Positions 18,003-31,507 of a stretch of 64,000 bases of DNA are shown one piece after another. The stretch comes from Gloeobacterales cyanobacterium. Lineage in GTDB: Bacteria; Cyanobacteriota; Cyanobacteriia; Gloeobacterales; PMM-0068. The DNA lies in NCBI GenBank assembly GCA_049582005.1, contig JBAUTB010000222.1, positions 682 through 64,681 on the forward strand. Reading direction: 5' to 3'. The notes under the pieces are model-generated. The model ran no database searches. It saw only the letters and a list, made by a program, of their open reading frames with translations, and was not told where the DNA came from. Each line of letters begins with the position of its first letter. Position 1 is the stretch's first letter. The translations under genes were made by a program, and so were the position numbers.

Positions 18003-18141
18003 ACACCTTCTGGCTAGTAGTAGATTCTCGGGCAAGTCCTTTCCTATCATTCGATGTCATCTTGCCCTAAGTTATTTCGCACGACGCCACCAAACCCGAT
18101 AATCTATACTTATGATATATATCAGCTTTTTGGAGGATGCT

Positions 18142-18387
18142 ATGTCGAAAACTGGAATTGCCAAGCTTTTTCGTAACGGACGTAGCCAGGCTGTACGTCT
18201 ACCTCAAGAGTTCCGTTTCCAGGGAGACCGGGTGCGCGTAAGCCGGGTCGGGAAAGGGGTCCTCCTTGAACCAATCGTGACGGATGCAGCCGAATGGTTT
18301 GCAGAATTGGATCGAATGAGCGACGAGCCCTTTATGCCCGAGGGTCACCATCAGCCCATTACACCTATCCGTGATCTGTTCGGATGA
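18142..18387 (+). CDS. vapB: VapB-type antitoxin (AbrB/SpoVT fold)
   Basis: MSKTGIAKLFRNGRSQAVRLPQEFRF.GDRV is the typical swapped-hairpin antitoxin motif. The stop overlaps the vapC start in ATGA at 18384-18387. The track ORF begins 30 nt upstream at 18112. Confidence 0.85.
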   Translation: MSKTGIAKLFRNGRSQAVRLPQEFRFQGDRVRVSRVGKGVLLEPIVTDAAEWFAELDRMSDEPFMPEGHHQPITPIRDLFG

Positions 18388-18800
18388 CCTACTTGTTGGA
18401 TACGAACGCATGCATCGCGCTGATCAACGGGAATCCTTCCCATGTGCGAGAGCGCTTCCAGCGCACAATGGCTACAGGCGATTCCATCACTGTGTCATCG
18501 GTTGTGGCTTTTGAACTTTGGTATGGTGTTGCTAAGAGTACACGAAAGGTAGCCAATACCAAGCGACTGGAAACCTTTTTCGCTGGGCCGCTTGACCTGT
18601 TGGCCTTTGACGATGAGGACGCTCGGACAGCGGGGACTATCCGAGCCGAACTAGAAGCAGGTGGGAATCCGATTGGGGCCTATGACCTATTGATCGCGGG
18701 ACAAGCGCTACGATACGGAGCGACCCTGGTGACAGCGAACGTCTCAGAATTCTCAAGGGTAGCGGGTCTCACCTGGGAAGATTGGGCGTCCCTGAGTTGA
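18384..18800 (+). CDS. vapC: VapC-type PIN-domain ribonuclease toxin
   Basis: 138 aa. MTYLLDTNACIALING (first acidic PIN residue), then ...FELWYG..., ...YDLLIAGQAL..., ...LVTANVSEF. Confidence 0.9.
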   Translation: MTYLLDTNACIALINGNPSHVRERFQRTMATGDSITVSSVVAFELWYGVAKSTRKVANTKRLETFFAGPLDLLAFDDEDARTAGTIRAELEAGGNPIGAYDLLIAGQALRYGATLVTANVSEFSRVAGLTWEDWASLS

Positions 18801-22713: not shown

Positions 22714-24228
22714 ATGAACTCTTTCTCTCCCCTCCGATCTACTCGTGTATTCCTTCGGGAACAGGTGCTAGATGAACGATTGATTCTCTCTTTGCGGAAT
22801 ATGCTCGGGGAGTCTCTGAGAGATATTGTTCCATTGAATTATGTCGCTCCTACTTTATATTTGGGGCACTTTAACCCTATAGACCCTACCGTACAGGCTA
22901 CCTTAAGCCAAAAACTGAAGAGCCCTCTGGAATGGGTCCTGCTGGATGCGGAGGATTATGCATTTTGGCAAGAATATTGCCGTGAGCACATCAAGGACTT
23001 TGAAGATGCCGCTCCTCTGCGGCCAGCCCCACCATCTAAAGTCATGACCACGGTGGGTGCAGACTTAGATGAACGGCAGATCTCTGAGCAGGTTCGCCAA
23101 CTTATCCTGGATGCTCTGGAGTGCCGAGCTTCTGACATTCACTTTGAACCAATGCCCCAGGGGTTGTTGGTGCGTTTCCGTATAGATGGTCTACTCAAAG
23201 AAGTAGCGTTGATGTCTCCTGCCTTAAGTAAGGTGGTGCTAGCACGGGTAAAAGTTCTGGCAGAGCTAGATATAGCAAACCAGCGAACGCCCCAGGATGG
23301 TCGCTCTACAGAATATTTTGGACAAGTGGAAGTAGACCTACGGGTAAGCACCCTGCCTTGTTTACATGGGGAAAAAGCCGTTATCCGTCTTTTACCAAAA
23401 ACTCAATCTTTCCAAATTGAAGAAGTAGGCTTTTCCTTTGACCAACTGAAGCGATTCCGTTCATGGTTGGGCTATAGCCAGGGGCTGGTCTTGATCACAG
23501 GGCCTACGGGTTCAGGAAAAACCAGTACCCTCTACGCTGGCTTGATGAATGTACTCACGCCCACAAAAAACATCGTTACCATTGAAGATCCGATTGAGTA
23601 TCAACTTTCCTCGGTCAATCAGGTCCAGGTGAATCCGAAGGCTGGTTTGACGTTTGCTTCGGGATTGCGGTCTATCTTGCGTCAAGATCCAGATGTGATC
23701 ATGGTGGGGGAAATCCGAGATTTAGAAACGGCCCAGACGGTCTTTCAAGCTGCAGTGACGGGCCACTTGGTCCTGAGTACGCTGCACACCAATGATGCCC
23801 CGAGCACCATTAATCGTCTGTTGGACATGGGAATTGAACCCTATTTGGTGGCTGCTTCTTTGCTGGGGGTGGTAGCGCAGCGTTTGGTTCGGAAGGTCTG
23901 TCCCCATTGCTGTCAGGAATATGAGCCAAAACCTACGGATATTCGCCGTTTAAATGTCGAAAAGGTCCCTCCCGCTACCCGTTGGCAAAAACCGATGGGT
24001 TGTGATCTGTGCAATCATATGGGCTACCTCGGTCGAGAGGGAATCTTTGAAATGATGCCTGTAGACGGGCCTTTGAGACAGATGATCCGTGACCGTGCCA
24101 GTGAGCAACAAATGCGTGTCCATCTGGAACAAAACTTGGGAGAGCGCTCTCTTAACCAATCAGCGGTACAAAAAGTAATGGAAGGGAAAACTTCTATTGA
24201 AGAAGTTCTCAGGGTGGTAACTATCTGA
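22714..24228 (+). CDS. GspE/PilB-family secretion ATPase (T2SS/T4P assembly-ATPase type)
   Basis: 504 aa. Walker A GPTGSGKTST, Asp box IVTIEDPIEYQL, Walker B DPDVIMVGEIRD, His box LVLSTLHTNDA. The tetracysteine CPHCC...CDLC is typical of GspE/PilB-like rather than PilT-like ATPases. The N-terminal region of about 130 aa resembles T2SSE_N. Confidence 0.88.
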   Translation: MNSFSPLRSTRVFLREQVLDERLILSLRNMLGESLRDIVPLNYVAPTLYLGHFNPIDPTVQATLSQKLKSPLEWVLLDAEDYAFWQEYCREHIKDFEDAAPLRPAPPSKVMTTVGADLDERQISEQVRQLILDALECRASDIHFEPMPQGLLVRFRIDGLLKEVALMSPALSKVVLARVKVLAELDIANQRTPQDGRSTEYFGQVEVDLRVSTLPCLHGEKAVIRLLPKTQSFQIEEVGFSFDQLKRFRSWLGYSQGLVLITGPTGSGKTSTLYAGLMNVLTPTKNIVTIEDPIEYQLSSVNQVQVNPKAGLTFASGLRSILRQDPDVIMVGEIRDLETAQTVFQAAVTGHLVLSTLHTNDAPSTINRLLDMGIEPYLVAASLLGVVAQRLVRKVCPHCCQEYEPKPTDIRRLNVEKVPPATRWQKPMGCDLCNHMGYLGREGIFEMMPVDGPLRQMIRDRASEQQMRVHLEQNLGERSLNQSAVQKVMEGKTSIEEVLRVVTI

Positions 24229-24231
24229 ATC

Positions 24232-25338
24232 ATGACCCAGCCCTTCCCCACAGAAGACCCTAAGCTACCCCTCGCTCCGTGGGAAGAGTCGTCCCTAGGC
24301 GACGATTTTGACGTATCAAAGACTCACGGAGCAGAGGTCTTCTACTTGGGAGACGAGGCCGACGAACAGCCCCCCCATCCTCAACCACCCGACCAAGAAG
24401 TAGAGGCTGGTTTCCCTTGGCAATCCAGCAGTCTATCCAATCAAAGAACAACATCGTCAAAGCCTCTCCCTTGGGAGGTCAAAGATATATCTTCTATATC
24501 TTCTGGGCAATCATATCAGACCCAGCCCCGCCCCCAGGTTCCTCCCGTTAGTCCCTCTCGACCGAGTCCTCCAAAAAATTTGCTGCAGCCCAAAAAATTC
24601 ACCTCTGACATCTGGCAGAATGTTCCTATATCGGGCTATGTTACTGCGGCAGCTGTCTTGGTTTTGGGAATGGGAGTGGTGTGGACAGCCAATGGTCTTT
24701 CCAAGGATTCAACAGTCAATGTGCCGCAAAGTGCCATTGTGGCAAAGAATAGTACCGTCGGAGCGGACGGAGGAACTTCTAGCGCATCCATACCCGTGCG
24801 TCCCCTGCGGTCTCGGGTCGTACCCGGTTCATCCTCCAATGAGGCCTCTAAGCCTGGATATATGCCAGAGGCTACTCCTGCGAGGCCAATGGCTCCGCTC
24901 CTGAATGGAAGCGTAAATTCATCGGATTCCACTTCCTCGGGCGAAACCAGTTCTGAATCTTCAACTGAATCCATGTATCTGTCTCCGCTAGCGGCTAGTT
25001 CTGCAGAGGCCGGAGCAGAGGGTGGGCCCCAAAATCCTTTTGCGCCTGCTTATCCTGCGCCAAAGCCTGCGGAGGAACCAAAACCGACCCTAACACCCCC
25101 TCCTGTAAGGCCTTTACCCTTGCCTCCCCCGCCCAAAGTGCTACCAGCGGTCCTTTCTCTAGAGGGAGTCGCTACGGATGGAAAGACAAAATTAGCGATT
25201 GTGCGGGTTGGGGATCAGCCCCTCACCGCAGAGGTGCAAGTTGGTACAACAATAGAAGGCTGGACGGTCACCGCTATCAAGGACCAGACCGTTACCCTCC
25301 GCAAATATAAACAACAACAGGTGCTCCGGCTGCCATGA
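24232..25338 (+). CDS. Bitopic Pro/Ser-rich protein with a C-terminal GspC/PilP-like (HR) domain
   Basis: 368 aa, starting 3 nt after the ATPase stop. Acidic, Pro-rich N-terminal region of about 130 aa. One TM segment (ISGYVTAAAVLVLGMGVVW). A low-complexity S/P/A linker of about 170 aa. The last ~70 aa (LSLEGVATDGKTKLAIVRVGDQPLTAEVQVGTTIEGWTVTAIKDQTVTLRKYKQQQVLRL) fit the GspC-HR/PilP pattern (L.G......A.I.....Y.VG..I.G..V..I....V.L). Confidence 0.6.
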   Translation: MTQPFPTEDPKLPLAPWEESSLGDDFDVSKTHGAEVFYLGDEADEQPPHPQPPDQEVEAGFPWQSSSLSNQRTTSSKPLPWEVKDISSISSGQSYQTQPRPQVPPVSPSRPSPPKNLLQPKKFTSDIWQNVPISGYVTAAAVLVLGMGVVWTANGLSKDSTVNVPQSAIVAKNSTVGADGGTSSASIPVRPLRSRVVPGSSSNEASKPGYMPEATPARPMAPLLNGSVNSSDSTSSGETSSESSTESMYLSPLAASSAEAGAEGGPQNPFAPAYPAPKPAEEPKPTLTPPPVRPLPLPPPPKVLPAVLSLEGVATDGKTKLAIVRVGDQPLTAEVQVGTTIEGWTVTAIKDQTVTLRKYKQQQVLRLP

Positions 25339-27317
25339 ACAAGAAAATGCTCAGTTCTGCCTTGACTGTTTTAGGGATACTGCTTTCTACTCAGCTTCCC
25401 CTCCTGGCAGCTCCTGTCCTCACTCAATTGAATCCCACCGCTAATGGCTTGGAATTATCCGCCAATGAGTCACTGGGCTATCGCGTCCTCAAGCAAGATG
25501 CCAAACAGGTCGTTGTGCTCTTACCTGGAGCAAAGTTAGGTTCTCTCAGCCCTCAATACACGGCGAATGTAGGTCAGGTCAACCTAGCAGAGAATGCCCA
25601 AGGGGTCCAAATGACCGTGGATTTTGCCAATAATGGATTGGCTTATGTCTTTCGTATGAACAAACAGAATTCTGCGCTTGTGTTGGAGTCGATTAAGCCT
25701 GCTGAAGCGATCGCAAAATCTTTGAATAATCCCTCTCTATCCGTACAGCCCGTCTCTTCCCCATCTTCTAATGCTGGCCCACGGGTCAATCTCAAGGTGC
25801 GAGATGGAGAAGTGCGGGACGCCTTAACCCTACTGAGCCGAGTTTCTAAAACCAGTATCGTCACCAACCAGGAAGTAAAAGGAAAAGTTACGCTGAACTT
25901 AGAAAACACCACCTTTGATGAAGCCCTAAAATCTTTGACGAGCGCTGCAGGCCTCCGCACCGAAAAAGTAGGGAATGTTTTCGTGGTCAGCCAGCCTGCT
26001 TCCCAGCAGCCTAACGCCTCTGGAGGTGGCGGGAATAGCCCTAATCCCTTGCGATCTTTGAATCCTAAAGAATTTCAAGGAGATCCTGGACGCCGATTGG
26101 TTTCGGTTATTGCTAATTCCACGCCTCTGAATGTAGCCCTACAAGAAATGGCTAACCAGGTAGGGGTGGATATTGTCATTAATGGGGAGTTGACAGAACC
26201 CGTGACAGCCCGCTTAGTTTCTAGACCCTTCGAAGATGCCTTAAAGCAACTGTTGCTCGGTACTAACTTTGGTTTCATCCGCGATGGAGATACCTATCGA
26301 GTCGGAGATGCTACCCCTGGTTCACCTGCAGCTCGTAATTTTGACGATGTGCAAGTGATCAAGCTAGCCTATAGCGATGCAAAAGATGTCTTGGCGGCTC
26401 TTCCTCCTGATACCCGTGCTCAAGGGATTAAGGTAGATGCTGCCCGTAATGCCTTGATTGTCTCAGGACCCTCTAATTTCCAGGCAAGTATCAAACGTTT
26501 TGTGCAAACGGTAGACACTCCGATTCAGCAAGTCAGTTTCTCTGTCAAAGCTTTTCAGTTGGACGAGGGGGGCAGTAGGGAATTTGATGTTCTAAAAGGG
26601 GCCGATCCAAGCCTAGGAGCCATAGCTACTGCTAATGCTACAAATCCTATCAGTTTGGCAGGTGCAATTGCGGGAACTAATGTTGCCATGTATAACAACA
26701 TCGCTCTTTCATTAAGCATTATTAATGGACTTATCAATGAGAATAAGGGGAGAGTTTTAACGGATACAAAATTGACCACTATGAGTGGGCAGAAAGCTTC
26801 CATAGATGTGAGTCAAGACATCAATGTACGGATCACGACGCCCATCAATACGGGGGGTACTTCAACAATCAGTAGTCAGTTCCAGACCATTCGTGCAGGT
26901 AATGTGATCGAAATTGAACCTGTGATTCGCGCAGACGGAAAAGTGTTTGCTTCTATATCCGTTGAAGCCTCTGTCCCTGTGAGAAAAACCATTTTGCCCG
27001 ATGTGGCTCCTGATATTAACCGTAGAAAAGTAACGAATAAGTTGATTCTTGAAGATGGACAGACCTTAGAAATTGGTGGTTTGATTCAGGAGACTATTAC
27101 AGAGACCAAACGACGTTTGCCCCTTTTTGGATATTTGCCGCTAGTCGGAGAGTTCTTCAGCGATACGGGAGAAGACAAGACCACTAATCAGCTCTTGGTT
27201 TTTATCACTCCCTACCTCAGCCGGGCTCCTCAAGCTTCCGTCCCCACCCTGGATCCAGCCCCTAAACGGCCTTCTGCGCCTGGTATTTCGCTTCCCTCGC
27301 AATCAGGAGTGCGGTAA
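25335..27317 (+). CDS. Outer-membrane secretin (GspD/PilQ family)
   Basis: 660 aa. The start overlaps the upstream stop (ATGA at 25335-25338). Signal peptide, then an AMIN-like N-terminal domain. Next come two STN/N0-like modules, both fitting ...IV.N.E....VT..L....F.DALK.L, then an N1-like module (VQVIKLAYSDAKDVLAAL...). The C-terminal secretin signature is RRLPLFGYLPLVGEFF...NQLLVFITPYL. Confidence 0.88.
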   Translation: MNKKMLSSALTVLGILLSTQLPLLAAPVLTQLNPTANGLELSANESLGYRVLKQDAKQVVVLLPGAKLGSLSPQYTANVGQVNLAENAQGVQMTVDFANNGLAYVFRMNKQNSALVLESIKPAEAIAKSLNNPSLSVQPVSSPSSNAGPRVNLKVRDGEVRDALTLLSRVSKTSIVTNQEVKGKVTLNLENTTFDEALKSLTSAAGLRTEKVGNVFVVSQPASQQPNASGGGGNSPNPLRSLNPKEFQGDPGRRLVSVIANSTPLNVALQEMANQVGVDIVINGELTEPVTARLVSRPFEDALKQLLLGTNFGFIRDGDTYRVGDATPGSPAARNFDDVQVIKLAYSDAKDVLAALPPDTRAQGIKVDAARNALIVSGPSNFQASIKRFVQTVDTPIQQVSFSVKAFQLDEGGSREFDVLKGADPSLGAIATANATNPISLAGAIAGTNVAMYNNIALSLSIINGLINENKGRVLTDTKLTTMSGQKASIDVSQDINVRITTPINTGGTSTISSQFQTIRAGNVIEIEPVIRADGKVFASISVEASVPVRKTILPDVAPDINRRKVTNKLILEDGQTLEIGGLIQETITETKRRLPLFGYLPLVGEFFSDTGEDKTTNQLLVFITPYLSRAPQASVPTLDPAPKRPSAPGISLPSQSGVR

Positions 27318-27333
27318 CAACCTACGGCTCAAC

Positions 27334-28059
27334 CTAATTAGCCGCCGTACTTGGGGCATTTTCTCCAATATGCTGCTGGATGGCGTAGGCTTGCATCCCC
27401 TGGAGCACCGCAAGCTCTGAAAATGCCTCTGTTAGTTTTGCGTGGGCTTCATCGCTCACGCTTGCTTCGATTCGTTTCATCAGGTCAGTTACCCGTTCTC
27501 CCTGCGCTTGAATCTCCTCTGGGTCAATCCGGCCATCAGCAATAGCCCGTTGCCACGATTCCATACGCTGGAAAAATTGAGCTGAATACACTTCGTTGGT
27601 CTCTTCGTTAAACCAACTGGTAGGCAACTCTACTGGAGTCGAAGGCGTAGGAGCGACTTGTTCCGTCGAAGTACTGCCGGTGGGCAAAGCCGACTCGATG
27701 ACTTTCCAGACTTCCTGATCGAGCTGGTATTGTTCCCACGTACCCCAGGCTGCCGGTAAGACTAGAGGCAAAAAGAGCAACAAGCCAATGCCTGCCACAA
27801 TCAGTTTATCGGCCCAGGCTCCTGCTCCGATCTTGACTTCGAGGGATTGGTCAGCCAGGGGCTTAATTTGGATGGTCAAAGCAGCGGCAAGACCAACGGC
27901 CACGCGCCAAATATCATCTCGGTAGCCTTGAATCACCAAGCTGCCATCCGGCAAACGAAGCAGCTGCGTTTCATATTCATGGCCCACAAACCAAAGCCGC
28001 ATTTTCTCCGCCAGATCTTGAGCCGTCAGCCCTGGGGCGTAGTAAGTTCTTGTTTGCAT
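27334..28059 (-). CDS. Hypothetical protein: fusion of a membrane-anchored N-domain and a helical C-domain (paralogs of the two upstream genes)
   Basis: 241 aa. Residues ~1-125 align without gaps to the 147-aa ORF (WF....ETQ.L..P....IQG..D......GL.AALT......L.V.IGA..W.DK...LF.P...A.G.W.Q..L....W..I...LP). Residues ~148-225 align to the 109-aa ORF (SWF....Y...FQRM.SWQ.AIADG.I.PEEI..Q...V..L...E..VSD.....TE...E.AVLQ.MQA). No family recognised. Confidence 0.7.
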   Translation of the reverse strand: MQTRTYYAPGLTAQDLAEKMRLWFVGHEYETQLLRLPDGSLVIQGYRDDIWRVAVGLAAALTIQIKPLADQSLEVKIGAGAWADKLIVAGIGLLLFLPLVLPAAWGTWEQYQLDQEVWKVIESALPTGSTSTEQVAPTPSTPVELPTSWFNEETNEVYSAQFFQRMESWQRAIADGRIDPEEIQAQGERVTDLMKRIEASVSDEAHAKLTEAFSELAVLQGMQAYAIQQHIGENAPSTAAN

Positions 28060-28070
28060 AGCAATTCTCC

Positions 28071-28514
28071 TCAGGGCGTTAACTTAACAGACTGGAAAGG
28101 TGGGGTAGGAACTTGGACTGCCACCTCGACGGCACCCGGTAGCCGTTTGGAGATGTATGTCCAGAGTTTGTCTTCGAGATTATCCTGCTGCCAAACCCCA
28201 TAGGCGGCGGTAAAAGCGAAGGGAGCGAACAAGAAGACGCCTGCAAAGCCTGCTAAATATTTATCTACCCAACTACTGGCTCCGATGGAAACGGTCAACG
28301 CTCCATCGGCCTGAGTCCCCACGGTGACGGTAAGTGCCGCCGAAAGCCCAAAGAAAAAGCGGATAAGATTGTCTTTGCGCCCTTGAATGATGAAGGTATT
28401 TTCAGGACCGACAAGGGTTTGGGTTTCGAAGTCTTCGGAACGAAACCATGACTCAATGGAAGTGGCCAGATATTGGGGCGAAGTATCTGGAATTTGATAG
28501 GCTTTGACTTTCAT
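28071..28514 (-). CDS. Hypothetical membrane-anchored protein, paralog of the N-domain of 27334-28059
   Basis: 147 aa. One hydrophobic segment (LAGFAGVFLFAPFAFTAAYGVW). An 11-nt gap to the downstream gene and a 9-nt gap to the upstream gene on the same strand. Confidence 0.7.
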   Translation of the reverse strand: MKVKAYQIPDTSPQYLATSIESWFRSEDFETQTLVGPENTFIIQGRKDNLIRFFFGLSAALTVTVGTQADGALTVSIGASSWVDKYLAGFAGVFLFAPFAFTAAYGVWQQDNLEDKLWTYISKRLPGAVEVAVQVPTPPFQSVKLTP

Positions 28515-28523
28515 GATGATTCC

Positions 28524-28814
28524 TTACTGATTTTTCTGCAGGGAACTGGTAACGGCAGAAGCTTGCATCGCCTGTAGTACCGCCATTTCATACAGCGTCT
28601 CGGTGATCATCTGGCGTTCAGCGTCGCTTACAAGAGGCTCTACTTCTTTCAGCAATGCAATCACCTTATGGGCCTGGTCCCGAATTTCTTCAGGGGTGAT
28701 TTTGCCGTCCGCTATTGCCTGCTGCCAAGAAGCCATTCGCTGAAAATACTCAGATAGATATAAAGGTCCTTTTTCTTGGTCAAACCAGCTAATACGCGAT
28801 GATTCCTCTACCAT
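28524..28814 (-). CDS. Hypothetical helical protein, paralog of the C-domain of 27334-28059
   Basis: The track ORF runs to 28853 (109 aa). The internal ATG at 28814 is preceded by GGGAGAAAGAAGAAC and gives MVEESSRISWFDQEKG... (96 aa). The choice of start is uncertain. Confidence 0.65.
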   Translation of the reverse strand: MVEESSRISWFDQEKGPLYLSEYFQRMASWQQAIADGKITPEEIRDQAHKVIALLKEVEPLVSDAERQMITETLYEMAVLQAMQASAVTSSLQKNQ

Positions 28815-29002
28815 GTTCTTCTTTCTCCCTAGGAATATCCGTCGTTTCAACATACTTCAGAAATTTAGCATTGCTTGCCCTTATAAGCCTCTACCTTGAG
28901 GAAGAGCTGAAAGGCATAAGCAGCGTGGAAGAACAGAAGCTACTCTAGCAATAAGGGACTCGGAAAACAAAGTGGCTTCCCAAAAGTAAGGTTAGAAATG
29001 TT

Positions 29003-30058
29003 GTGACGAACAAAAACCAACTATCTATTCTGTTCGTGACCCTGCTCCTCCTCTGGGGGGCGCTGTTGATTTTAGCTCCTTTCCTAAGCGCTATTTGTTG
29101 GGCCACCATCGTAGCCGTAGTTACTTGGCCGCTCTACAAGAGACTGCAAAGCTTTTTGGGAAAACGTCAAGGTTGGTCTGCCCTGGTCATGACCCTTCTG
29201 GTATTTCTAGGGGTGTTTCTCCCTTTGGCGCTCATGGCTCTGCTCCTGGCTGAGCAAGTTGCGGATATTGCTAGAACACTTAACCTCAACACGCTTGCTA
29301 AACAGCTAGACAATCTGGTTGTTAGTTCCCAGCAAATACCTTGGATAGGGCCACAGCTTTATACCTCTCTACAAGACCTAGGACCAAAGCTACAAGAGGG
29401 ATTACGTAGCCGAATTGGAGGGATCTTGACGGTTTTTGCCAGTGTAGGGCAGCAAGTAACTCAAGGTTTTATTACACTGGGCCTGACCGTTTTCATTAGT
29501 TTCTTTTTTTATAAAAACGGCGATGCTTGGGTGAATCAGGGGCAGCGCAGTTTGTATCGCTTGGGCGGAGACCCCTTAGCTTCTTTACTTAACCCTTTAG
29601 CAAATACCGTACGGGCTGTAGTTCTGGGCTTGACTTTGACTGCTATCGTGCAAGGATTTCTGGCTGGTTTGGGTTTCTGGGGAGTCGGTATAGAAGGAGC
29701 CGTAATTTGGGGACTCGTCACCACCCTACTGGCAATTATTCAGATTCCCACGTTCTTCGTGTGGTTACCTTGGGGGCTCTGGCTGGTTTTTGCCGGTCAA
29801 CTCTGGCAGGGGCTCGCGCTGCTCACTTGGGGCGCATTGGCCGTGAGCACGATTGATAATTTCTTGAAACCTGTATTCATCAGTCAGGGTGCAGGGATCC
29901 CTTTTTTAGTCGTACTTTTTGGTGTCTTAGGGGGAGTGCTCGCTTTCGGTCCATTAGGTATTATTCTGGGGCCTGTGCTTTTATCGGTTCTCCTCACGCT
30001 CTGGCAACGCTGGGTGGACTCTGGAGAAGCGGAGGAAAATAAGAACCTCTCCAGTTAA
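29003..30058 (+). CDS. AI-2E family transporter (PerM/UPF0118)
   Basis: 351 aa with a GTG start and about 8 hydrophobic segments. The C-terminal pattern ...TIDNFLKPVFISQGAGIPFLVVLFGVLGGVLAFGPLGIILGPVLL is typical of the family. Confidence 0.82.
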   Translation: MTNKNQLSILFVTLLLLWGALLILAPFLSAICWATIVAVVTWPLYKRLQSFLGKRQGWSALVMTLLVFLGVFLPLALMALLLAEQVADIARTLNLNTLAKQLDNLVVSSQQIPWIGPQLYTSLQDLGPKLQEGLRSRIGGILTVFASVGQQVTQGFITLGLTVFISFFFYKNGDAWVNQGQRSLYRLGGDPLASLLNPLANTVRAVVLGLTLTAIVQGFLAGLGFWGVGIEGAVIWGLVTTLLAIIQIPTFFVWLPWGLWLVFAGQLWQGLALLTWGALAVSTIDNFLKPVFISQGAGIPFLVVLFGVLGGVLAFGPLGIILGPVLLSVLLTLWQRWVDSGEAEENKNLSS

Positions 30059-30184
30059 AGGCAGGAACTTTTATAGATAGAAGAAGCTCAGTCATCGGCT
30101 TTGCACAAAATCCAATGATGATGCACCTAGCGGAATGGGTAGCCTGAAATCAAGCTTATTTATTGAGGAGTGCACAACAGAACC

Positions 30185-31507
30185 ATGAACCTACGTCTTA
30201 TGGCAAAAGGTGTATTAGGGATCATGTTTCTCTTGACAGGAGGATGGTTATCGCAAGGCTTAACGAAGTCTCTGCCCACAGTGCTTGCTCAAGCTCCTTT
30301 AAACAGTACAGGGGCCACGATCATTGCCCAACCCGGAGAAAAATTTCCGCAATTAGTGCGGAGGGGAGAACAAACGGCTCGTTCTCTGTTGGAACCACTC
30401 TTTGCCGCAGGGGCTCAGGAAGGCTACATACAAATCGGAGTAAAAAGTCGTAGTAGTATATTTCCTTTAATGGATGTGCGGGTGTCGCGCGCGGATTGGT
30501 CCCAGAAGCCCTCTTCTTTGCTCCCATACAGCCGCGTATTTACAGAGACCGAGAGTTTAATAGAATTCTCCCCGACTCCAAAGGCAGACATAATAAAACG
30601 TCCTGCCAAATCTCCCAGTACAACTTCTGCAACAACCTCATCTGAGAATAAAAAGACTGCAGAAGGCCAACAAGCCACTCCAGAAAACAAAAAAGTGGAT
30701 AGTTCGACTAGTTCGACGGGATCAATCGCTGAACCTTCAAGCAACCAACTGAGCTCTAGCGCTCCAAAGGCAGACAGCAAGAGAGTTCCTGTCAATACCC
30801 CGATTATGCTTAGTTTTAAAGACCTCCTGGCAAAGGACGTAAAGAGTTTAGGGGTCCAAATTATGCCTGCACCGAAAGGAGGCAATGAATCCCTTTCAGA
30901 TAAAACCTATCAATTTACGCCCCAGCCCCGCTTGGGCTATAGTACGGAATACACTGTTACGGTGAGTGGGTCCAAGGAAAAGCCCCTCAAAGAACCGATC
31001 AAACTCAAGTTCACCACTGAGCCTCAGTACACCTATAAGAAAGATATCCAGACCATGCTGGCAGGTACCTGCACCAGCTGCCACAGTACCACGGGGACCC
31101 AACGCAATCGCTCGGAATTGGATACCTATGCGAAAGTCTTGAAGTACGTTACCCCAGGAATAGGAGGCGAGCTCATCAATCCCAAGTGGTTAGCACTCCA
31201 TGCAAGCGGTGGAGGAACGGGAGGACCAGGTTTTCTCCCAAAAGCAGGTCTTCGCCAACGAGGCGATAAAGTGATTGGTGGAGGCGGAGCCACTTCTGCC
31301 AATCCCTTTGGCACCGTAGCACCCTCATCGACCACAAGTGCTACAGGAACGGCCAGCACCGCAGATAGCTTGCAAGGTAATGCAGGTTCATCCCTTAGTA
31401 CCGATACCAGCAATGTTTCACGAGGTAACCGTCAAGGTGCGCTAACCGATGAACAGGTAACCATTCTAAAGACATGGATTGTTCAAGATAAAGCGGTAGA
31501 AGAATAG
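30185..31507 (+). CDS. Secreted multidomain protein: unknown N-domain, Ser/Thr-rich linker, Ig-like domain, and CXXCH (PSCyt1-like) putative heme-c domain
   Basis: The track ORF starts at a GTG at 30170. The ATG at 30185 gives the signal-like MNLRLMAKGVLGIMFLLTGGW. The Ig-like (SbsA-type) pattern is VPVNTPIMLSF...YQFTPQPRLGYSTEYTVTVSG. Then IQTMLAGTCTSCHS...LTDEQVTILKTWIVQDKA, resembling the planctomycete-type cytochrome c domain. Confidence 0.6.
   Translation: MNLRLMAKGVLGIMFLLTGGWLSQGLTKSLPTVLAQAPLNSTGATIIAQPGEKFPQLVRRGEQTARSLLEPLFAAGAQEGYIQIGVKSRSSIFPLMDVRVSRADWSQKPSSLLPYSRVFTETESLIEFSPTPKADIIKRPAKSPSTTSATTSSENKKTAEGQQATPENKKVDSSTSSTGSIAEPSSNQLSSSAPKADSKRVPVNTPIMLSFKDLLAKDVKSLGVQIMPAPKGGNESLSDKTYQFTPQPRLGYSTEYTVTVSGSKEKPLKEPIKLKFTTEPQYTYKKDIQTMLAGTCTSCHSTTGTQRNRSELDTYAKVLKYVTPGIGGELINPKWLALHASGGGTGGPGFLPKAGLRQRGDKVIGGGGATSANPFGTVAPSSTTSATGTASTADSLQGNAGSSLSTDTSNVSRGNRQGALTDEQVTILKTWIVQDKAVEE

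Follow-up and report, generated by a model that had tools for sequence, protein, structure and literature searches.

Split and fused forms of two unannotated protein modules, very probably physical partners, in one Gloeobacterales operon

The window analysed here is a stretch of 64,000 nt from a Gloeobacterales cyanobacterium (GenBank assembly GCA_049582005.1, contig JBAUTB010000222.1, positions 682 to 64,681 of the forward strand). It carries three adjacent minus-strand genes, hereafter the triad, that encode two protein modules, N and C, both as separate proteins and as a single N-C chain. Analysis of these genes and of their relatives reveals two unannotated families whose members are very probably physical partners and, more tentatively, points to a system associated with the cytoplasmic membrane.

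Split and fused paralogs in one operon

The triad is transcribed in the order C-like, N-like, N-C (genes 1, 2 and 3), with gaps of 9 nt between genes 1 and 2 and 11 nt between genes 2 and 3. Shine-Dalgarno-like (SD-like) sites precede the ATG codons of gene 2 (AAGGA) and gene 3 (GAGGAG), and no terminator is seen in the intergenic gaps, both of which fit a single operon. A terminator-like hairpin at 27777-27798 lies within coding sequence at chance level and was dismissed, and the presumed promoter region holds no convincing sigma-70 consensus. The GC content of the triad is that of its surroundings, and no additional copy of the N- or C-module is present elsewhere in the window.

The first-ATG open reading frame (ORF) of gene 1 reaches 28853 and encodes 109 aa. 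Its orthologs are mostly 96 aa long and cover just 88% of this ORF, the corresponding ORF in the closest relative (locus L002, metagenome-assembled genome (MAG) PMM_0068) is itself 96 aa, and an SD-like GGGAG lies at 28825-28829, 10 nt ahead of the internal ATG at 28814. Because of these three observations we take gene 1 most likely to start at Met14, as listed in Table 1.

Table 1. Features of the triad and of the adjoining divergent region, in coordinates of the window.
Feature	Position	Strand	Basis or remarks
Gene 3, fused N-C protein, 241 aa	27334..28059	minus	ORF map, BLASTP, AlphaFold2 (AF2)
Gene 2, standalone N-module protein, 147 aa	28071..28514	minus	alpha/beta domain, hydrophobic helix, short Pro-rich tail
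Gene 1, standalone C-module protein, most likely 96 aa from Met14	28524..28814	minus	ortholog lengths, SD-like site
Alpha/beta domain, fused protein aa 1-80	27820..28059	minus	beta-alpha-beta-beta-beta-beta; AF2 predicted local distance difference test score (pLDDT) >90 over most
Hydrophobic helix, fused protein aa 86-108 LIVAGIGLLLFLPLVLPAAWGTW	27736..27804	minus	Pro98 central; AF2, conservation
Hydrophobic helix, split N aa 86-108 YLAGFAGVFLFAPFAFTAAYGVW	28191..28259	minus	central Pro; ungapped alignment to fused protein
Low-complexity Pro/Thr/Ser linker, fused protein aa 126-146	27622..27684	minus	low AF2 pLDDT
C-module of fused protein, aa 147-235	27355..27621	minus	WF motif, SHOCT-like segment (a lead) ESWQRAIADGRIDPEEIQAQ, helical hairpin
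Divergent intergenic region, triad versus PerM/AI-2E-like gene	28854..29002		presumed triad promoter region
PerM/AI-2E-like gene	29003-30058	plus	divergent neighbour of triad

BLASTP aligns the gene 2 product with residues 1-145 of the fused protein at 37% identity, ungapped (E=2e-29), and residues 22-108 of the 109-aa ORF with fused residues 148-234 at 48% identity, again ungapped (E=9e-28). The paralogy of both split proteins with the two halves of the fused protein is far beyond chance. An earlier, sequence-only reading of the window had described three minus-strand ORFs with these gaps in this order, the 147-aa product corresponding without gaps to the N-terminal part of the fusion and the small product to its C-terminal part; the ORF map and the alignment statistics bear all of this out. 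Two of its statements hold in part. The small product is homologous to the C-half of the fusion but is probably 96 rather than 109 aa long, and gene 3, described as a fusion of paralogs of the other two, is paralogous to both but probably did not arise in that direction, since split N may itself be a truncated fusion.

Word-indexed searches found each triad protein essentially only in Gloeobacterales, namely in Gloeobacter violaceus (Glr4061, Glr4062), G. kilaueensis, Anthocerotibacter panamensis, Candidatus Cyanaurora vandensis and metagenomic relatives. Orthologs of the fused protein fall into 28 clusters of 226-264 aa, all from Gloeobacterales-type sources, and split-N orthologs measure 146-152 aa across the order. 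The complete triad recurs in the same gene order, with tiny gaps or overlaps, at nine Gloeobacterales loci including glr4060-4062 of G. violaceus; a literature text search on these three locus tags found no paper. The closest locus, L002, shares 91-95% protein identity with the triad, and the ratio of nonsynonymous to synonymous substitution rates (dN/dS) against it, at 0.085 for C, 0.17 for N and 0.088 for N-C, indicates purifying selection on each of them.

In neighbour-joining (NJ) trees, split-N and fused-N form separate clades, as do split-C and fused-C, and each clade contains the same lineages. Because the split and fused clades are reciprocally monophyletic, the duplication is older than the order's radiation, after which every copy was retained; inheritance of the triad looks vertical across the order. 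We also observe a second, divergent doublet of C followed by N-C, lacking split N, at 12021-13104 of L006 (MAG la1_52) and at 7253-8276 of L008 (Cand. Cyanaurora vandensis), and this suggests that the doublet is the older arrangement. Since split-N is sister to fused-N inside Gloeobacterales in the NJ tree, and doublets occur in both Gloeobacterales and Chloroflexia, the triad may tentatively be derived from such a doublet through duplication and truncation of N-C, and not through fusion of split genes.

The split-N tail (28071-28115) carries the Pro-rich pattern V-P-T-P-P-F-x-x-V/I-x-L-T/A-P in all orthologs. Its VPTPPF could be what remains of the linker or of the beginning of the C-module (LPTSWF), but this is a weakly supported hint, because MAFFT and BLAST place the tail differently.

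Two unannotated families and their linkage across phyla

An exhaustive HMMER profile search of 1.84 billion representatives of 50%-identity clusters returned 1,234 matches at E<=1e-3, 463 of them at E<=1e-10. The modules are therefore no orphans but members of a large superfamily that lacks annotation. Neither the N- nor the C-module is covered by a Pfam, NCBIfam or PADLOC model, and no PDB sequence is related to either; weak matches to JAKMIP_CC3, DUF6001, ASXH, TipAS, MotS and DppC (three proteins) fell below cut-off and were set aside as noise. These searches agree with the sequence-only reading, which could assign neither module to a known family, and no model above cut-off places the two modules in characterised families. 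We thus have two domain families without a Pfam or NCBIfam model, and without a match in the PDB searches made, that extend over more than 1,000 clusters.

N and C hidden Markov models applied to 221 proteins identified 149 with N only, 35 with C only, 34 with N-C and three with C-N architecture. The C-N fusions are true single ORFs on several independent contigs. For the alternative architectures, the cluster records are almost without taxonomy. At one C-N locus (L023) the 234-aa gene upstream of the C-N fusion is unrelated and has a prepilin-like look.

When 185,579 species genomes were scanned with motifs of the C-module (alignment A2), C genes turned up in Thermoflexus, Anaerolineae, Chloroflexia, Chlorohelix and Polyangiaceae. 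The gene immediately after C encodes an N-module with a C-terminal zinc-ribbon tail in Thermoflexus, in one MAG of Anaerolineae and in three of Polyangiaceae, while Chlorohelix and one MAG of Chloroflexia have a C gene of half length followed by an N-C fusion with a long linker. At L018 (7242-8237) and L019 (7169-8240), the half-length C of 64-83 aa comprises helices 2-3 only and precedes an N-C protein with a ~60-aa linker rich in Pro, Tyr and Gln; the length of the N-to-C linker varies among orthologs and reaches about 60-85 aa in Chloroflexia fusions. Adjacent C and N genes are thereby found in at least three phyla. Linkage was also assessed for five standalone-C representatives picked regardless of context. 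The fifth contig stops at the C gene, and in the assessable representatives (4/4) a gene for an N-module with zinc ribbon lies 2-15 nt downstream of C. Given this linkage in Chloroflexota, in Polyangiaceae and next to 4/4 randomly chosen C genes, the widespread unit is C followed by N.

Variants of this unit are seen as well. In two Chloroflexota MAGs (L014, 8335-10477; L016, 8300-10516), the C gene is followed by a small protein with two transmembrane (TM) segments and a C-terminal zinc ribbon that lacks an N-module, and then by a third gene for a ~565-aa secreted or TM protein with a Cys-Ala repeat end (CACACACAGCACACAGGGR). The third gene of a metagenomic locus in which C precedes an N-module with zinc ribbon (L026, 2019-2618) encodes a membrane protein with a similar C-terminal double zinc ribbon and no N-module.

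Linked C and N genes, together with fusions in both orders, N-C and C-N, strongly support a physical partnership, and N and C are very probably physical partners on this genomic evidence, which is unusually clean. The modules are encoded by neighbouring genes in some genomes and occur as a single chain in others. The interaction that the sequence-only reading had predicted by Rosetta-stone logic is accordingly supported by the gene pairs, the downstream N genes and both fusion types, and the wider survey adds split, linked and fused forms in other phyla to the order-wide triad of Gloeobacterales.

Membrane topology and candidate roles

The AF2 model of the fused protein (mean pLDDT 74) is composed of four parts: a confident alpha/beta domain (residues 1-79), a helical stretch at 85-124, a disordered linker and three helices. 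In 186 N-modules, the best-conserved positions lie outside the soluble domain and at or within the hydrophobic segment, with conservation of 98% for W82, 90% for D84, 94% for K85, 95% for P98, 97% for G106, 88% for W/Y108 and 91% for Q110. This conservation suggests that the helix is more than a generic membrane anchor, which would not be so conserved. We note that Lys and Arg are common on both of its flanks. What had been called one TM helix from sequence is indeed a hydrophobic helix, but is probably not a simple membrane-spanning anchor.

The domains joined to the N-module are informative in this respect. Across 146 representatives they include zinc ribbons (57), TIR (10), SHOCT (7), GYF (3) and Ser/Thr kinase (2) domains, as well as CHAT, FHA, bPH_3 and DUF4429 (1 each). 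Zinc ribbons follow the helix in 45 representatives and precede it in 17, and no representative has them on both sides. The TIR, kinase and CHAT domains are found upstream of the helix, and SHOCT and bPH domains downstream. Because domains of cytoplasmic type thus lie on either side, both ends of the helix would be cytoplasmic and the segment re-entrant at Pro98. A helix-break-helix centred on this residue would be the simplest reconciliation of the observed architectures, and DSSP analysis of the AF2 fused model reveals helix breaks at residues 91 and 96, just ahead of Pro98. In six of the family members (P0139, P0101, P0181, P0157, P0125 and P0126), with TIR-zinc ribbon-N-module, CHAT-N-module and kinase-N-module-SHOCT architectures, the N-module forms the C-terminal part of a conflict or signalling protein.

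A bitopic helix that spans the membrane once, with its N-terminus inside, would instead place fused C in the periplasm and free C in the cytoplasm, so that the C paralogs would have related jobs on opposite faces, or C would bind either membrane surface generically. Such a topology would suit the L86-W108 segment, whose 23 unbroken hydrophobic residues have the classical transmembrane length and are drawn by AF2 largely as one helix extending to residue 124. Split-C and fused-C form old, distinct clades that could have diverged in function, and Pro/Thr/Ser-rich linkers like the one that follows the helix are common in extracytoplasmic tethers. However, whereas N-C fusions carry C after the hydrophobic helix, C-N fusions have the same conserved C ahead of the N-domain, without a hydrophobic stretch in between. 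Free C proteins have no signal peptide and start directly at the WF motif, and split and fused C-modules have their invariant residues in common. Moreover, zinc ribbons or SHOCT domains, usually found in the cytoplasm, come after the helix in at least 45 members while TIR, kinase or zinc-ribbon domains precede it in others, and the frequent Lys and Arg on both helix flanks argue in the same direction. We consider the bitopic topology unlikely, though it is the main rival of the re-entrant one.

The C-module is modelled in its free form with a pLDDT of 83.7 and three helices (16-35, 41-61 and 64-95); F150 is the sole invariant column of alignment A1. SHOCT itself (PF09851, a 28-residue profile with a gathering threshold of 27 bits) gave no match at E<=1 in the window proteins and 15 C-modules. 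The SHOCT-like DUF1707 (PF08044, gathering threshold 27.6 bits) gave below-threshold matches in 5/15 C-modules (E=0.003-0.1), always on the ADG-x-I-x-PEEI segment. Alignment of the C-module with seven SHOCT sequences by hhalign resulted in E=0.0015 and the expected register, at a probability of just 17%. In other family members, a genuine SHOCT (LAELKERGIITAEEFQAQK) downstream of the N-module is in register with ESWQRAIADGRIDPEEIQAQ of the C-module. "SHOCT-like" is accordingly a lead for the C-module and not membership. Comparative work predicts an intracellular location close to the membrane for SHOCT-like domains, which would tether diverse domains at the inner leaflet (PMC11237479), while simple oligomerisation is left without support by the original SHOCT paper (PMC3581485).

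We tentatively favour, at somewhat less than even confidence, a membrane-associated two-module system in which a re-entrant anchor and a SHOCT-like three-helix partner form mixed sub-membrane assemblies. The proteins would contribute as follows: (I) the N-module, a ~80-aa alpha/beta domain with a ~23-residue helix, would be inserted in the cytoplasmic membrane, most probably as a re-entrant (monotopic) segment that leaves both of its ends cytoplasmic, (II) it would self-associate, probably through the conserved Gly/Pro/Trp/Gln helix, and (III) the C-module, a soluble cytoplasmic three-helix domain with an invariant Trp-Phe, would be a specific binder of the N-module, to which it is tethered covalently in the fused protein. 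One operon would then yield free C, free N and linked N-C, and these could assemble into mixed sub-membrane oligomers serving as a scaffold or a membrane-state sensor, not as an enzyme.

Several points weigh against this proposal, in addition to the transmembrane length and largely continuous modelled helix of L86-W108 discussed above. Foldseek, a check that the sequence-only reading had proposed for both modules, gives no PDB match for the free C model and no significant fold match for the fused model (best E 0.01). The SHOCT relationship lies under every curated cut-off, as reflected in the low hhalign probability, and the zinc ribbons may be extracytoplasmic. The case for binding of C to N is a genomic one, and no target of a scaffold or sensor is indicated by these data. 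The TIR and CHAT fusions, finally, are also compatible with a conflict-system effector.

This last point leads to a different role, in which the N-module would be a membrane-permeabilising effector of a conflict or toxin-antitoxin (TA) system that oligomerises by its Gly/Pro/Trp/Gln helix. The small acidic C, encoded upstream, would inhibit this effector or regulate it by sensing a trigger, and the N-C protein would be self-inhibited. TIR (10/146), CHAT and Ser/Thr kinase fusions are typical of bacterial conflict systems, a small soluble gene ahead of a membrane gene resembles many antitoxin-toxin pairs, a pore would fit the unusual conservation of the membrane helix, and the taxa concerned (Chloroflexota, myxobacteria, cyanobacteria) are rich in conflict systems. 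The evolutionary record of the triad argues against such a role: inheritance is vertical across a whole ancient order, the gene trees group the same lineages for all modules, dN/dS is low and GC content matches the surroundings. In addition, no plasmid or phage match was found in a tblastn search with one standalone N-module representative, there are no conserved defence neighbours, and no PADLOC model falls on N or C itself. PADLOC-DB v2 families match at most 8/146 representatives and, judging by what they are called (TIR, ThsB, kinase/PglW, PD-T4-6), do so through the fused TIR and kinase parts. No TA family gives a match above Pfam gathering thresholds (the antitoxin VbhA alone appears, far below threshold, with E>=0.083 in 2/15 C-modules), and the distribution in Gloeobacterales looks vertical and order-wide, unlike the patchy, mobile one of type II TA systems. 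We regard the conflict role as improbable, although the TIR and CHAT fusions keep it in play; vertical retention throughout the order and the lack of mobile-element copies in that search speak for a core cellular function rather than for defence or a TA role.

The N-module might also sense membrane state in an envelope-stress response resembling the phage shock protein (PSP) system, and recruit or signal via C, zinc-ribbon or SHOCT tails. The partner domains (SHOCT, SHOCT-like, zinc ribbon, bPH_3, DUF4429, FHA and kinase) are indeed those of PSP-associated membrane-proximal proteins (PMC11237479). However, Pfam-annotated gene lists and reading of unannotated ORF translations reveal no PspA/Vipp1, PspC, Toastrack or LiaF adjacent to the genes in the window, in G. 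violaceus or at the other loci inspected, and no transcription factor or two-component system is linked to them. A PSP-like function is, in our judgement, quite unlikely.

A broader form of the re-entrant proposal may be considered. The cytoplasmic membrane of the thylakoid-less Gloeobacterales is the only one available for photosynthesis and respiration. The N-module could be a widespread and previously unrecognised monotopic insertion domain that holds TIR, CHAT, kinase, FHA and zinc-ribbon domains at the inner leaflet. The C-module would be the SHOCT-related partner dedicated to it, and the Gloeobacterales triad could form a mixed-stoichiometry lattice organising the cytoplasmic membrane. 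We find this extended version doubtful. As the N-module is reused in TIR, CHAT and kinase proteins, knowledge of its topology and its partner would aid the annotation of signalling and immunity proteins. In sum, N and C are two new families that lack annotation and whose partnership is clear; they are a lead for domain discovery and not yet a mechanism.

Upstream in the window, a compact plus-strand cluster at 22714-27317 encodes a GspE/PilB-like ATPase (504 aa), a Pro/Ser-rich protein with one hydrophobic segment (368 aa) and a secretin (660 aa), with no other type II/IV machinery genes visible beside it. This operon lies tail-to-tail with the triad, and the PerM-like gene is divergent from the triad; both are syntenic only in the two closest relatives, L002 and L013, and in the Gloeobacter clade their place is taken by a glyoxalase and a 102-aa gene. 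As synteny excludes Gloeobacter, Cyanaurora and others, we reject a functional link between the triad and GspE/secretin, in line with the sequence-only reading, which saw none. No neighbour is conserved across the order, and the triad is an autonomous unit. Farther away on the plus strand, overlapping 91-aa and 138-aa ORFs at 18112-18800 have, by eye, the look of an AbrB/VapB-type antitoxin and a PIN-domain VapC toxin. A 445-aa ORF at 30170-31507 (plus strand), conserved in L013, combines long low-complexity stretches rich in Ser and Thr with a CxxCH motif (CTSCH) that is suggestive of a c-type haem site.

Comparison with known systems

For the N-domain, the top Foldseek matches are the KA1, AMPK-CTD (AMPK-alpha C-terminal) and BamC-N domains, which have a like order of beta-alpha-beta-beta-beta-beta plus helix. 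KA1 domains bind membranes. At E 0.01-0.03, TM-scores of 0.2-0.47 and 7-14% identity, the matches provide no evidence of homology, and the N-domain misses both thresholds for KA1/helix-grip-like membership (Foldseek E<=1e-3 or TM>0.5).

The hydrophobic segment itself resembles re-entrant hairpins. PglC, a monotopic phosphoglycosyl transferase, provides an experimental precedent: a central Ser-Pro and an N-terminal Lys-Arg make its ~20-residue hydrophobic segment re-entrant, and caveolin uses an Ile-Pro (PMC6133551). Like these, the N-module combines a TM-like segment of ~20-25 residues, a conserved central Pro after a bulky residue, a conserved basic residue at the N-terminal edge of the helix and, on the re-entrant reading, soluble domains on one side of the membrane. 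Unlike them, it has no catalytic domain and no sequence or fold relationship to either, and its topology is read solely from domain architectures. If re-entrant, the N-module would be a new and common fold among the very few bacterial monotopic anchors.

The C-module in turn resembles SHOCT and DUF1707 in its central element, helix, G-x-[ILV]-[TD]-x-E-E-[FI], helix, with ESWQRAIADG-R-I-D-PEEIQAQ in the C-module in register with LAELKERG-I-I-T-AEEFQAQK in SHOCT. In other members a genuine SHOCT also occupies the place of the C-module, after the N-module helix. The C-module differs from SHOCT in its length of ~90 aa, in its additional invariant WF motif and third long helix, and in its occurrence as a standalone protein.

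Taken as a pair, the modules behave like classical Rosetta-stone proteins, which are encoded by neighbouring genes in some genomes and by one polypeptide in others; the triad modules do so in both orders. Whereas the classical forms are mutually exclusive, the triad keeps split and fused forms side by side in one operon across the whole order, and their retention throughout the history of Gloeobacterales constitutes a natural experiment on the stoichiometry and tethering of an interacting pair.

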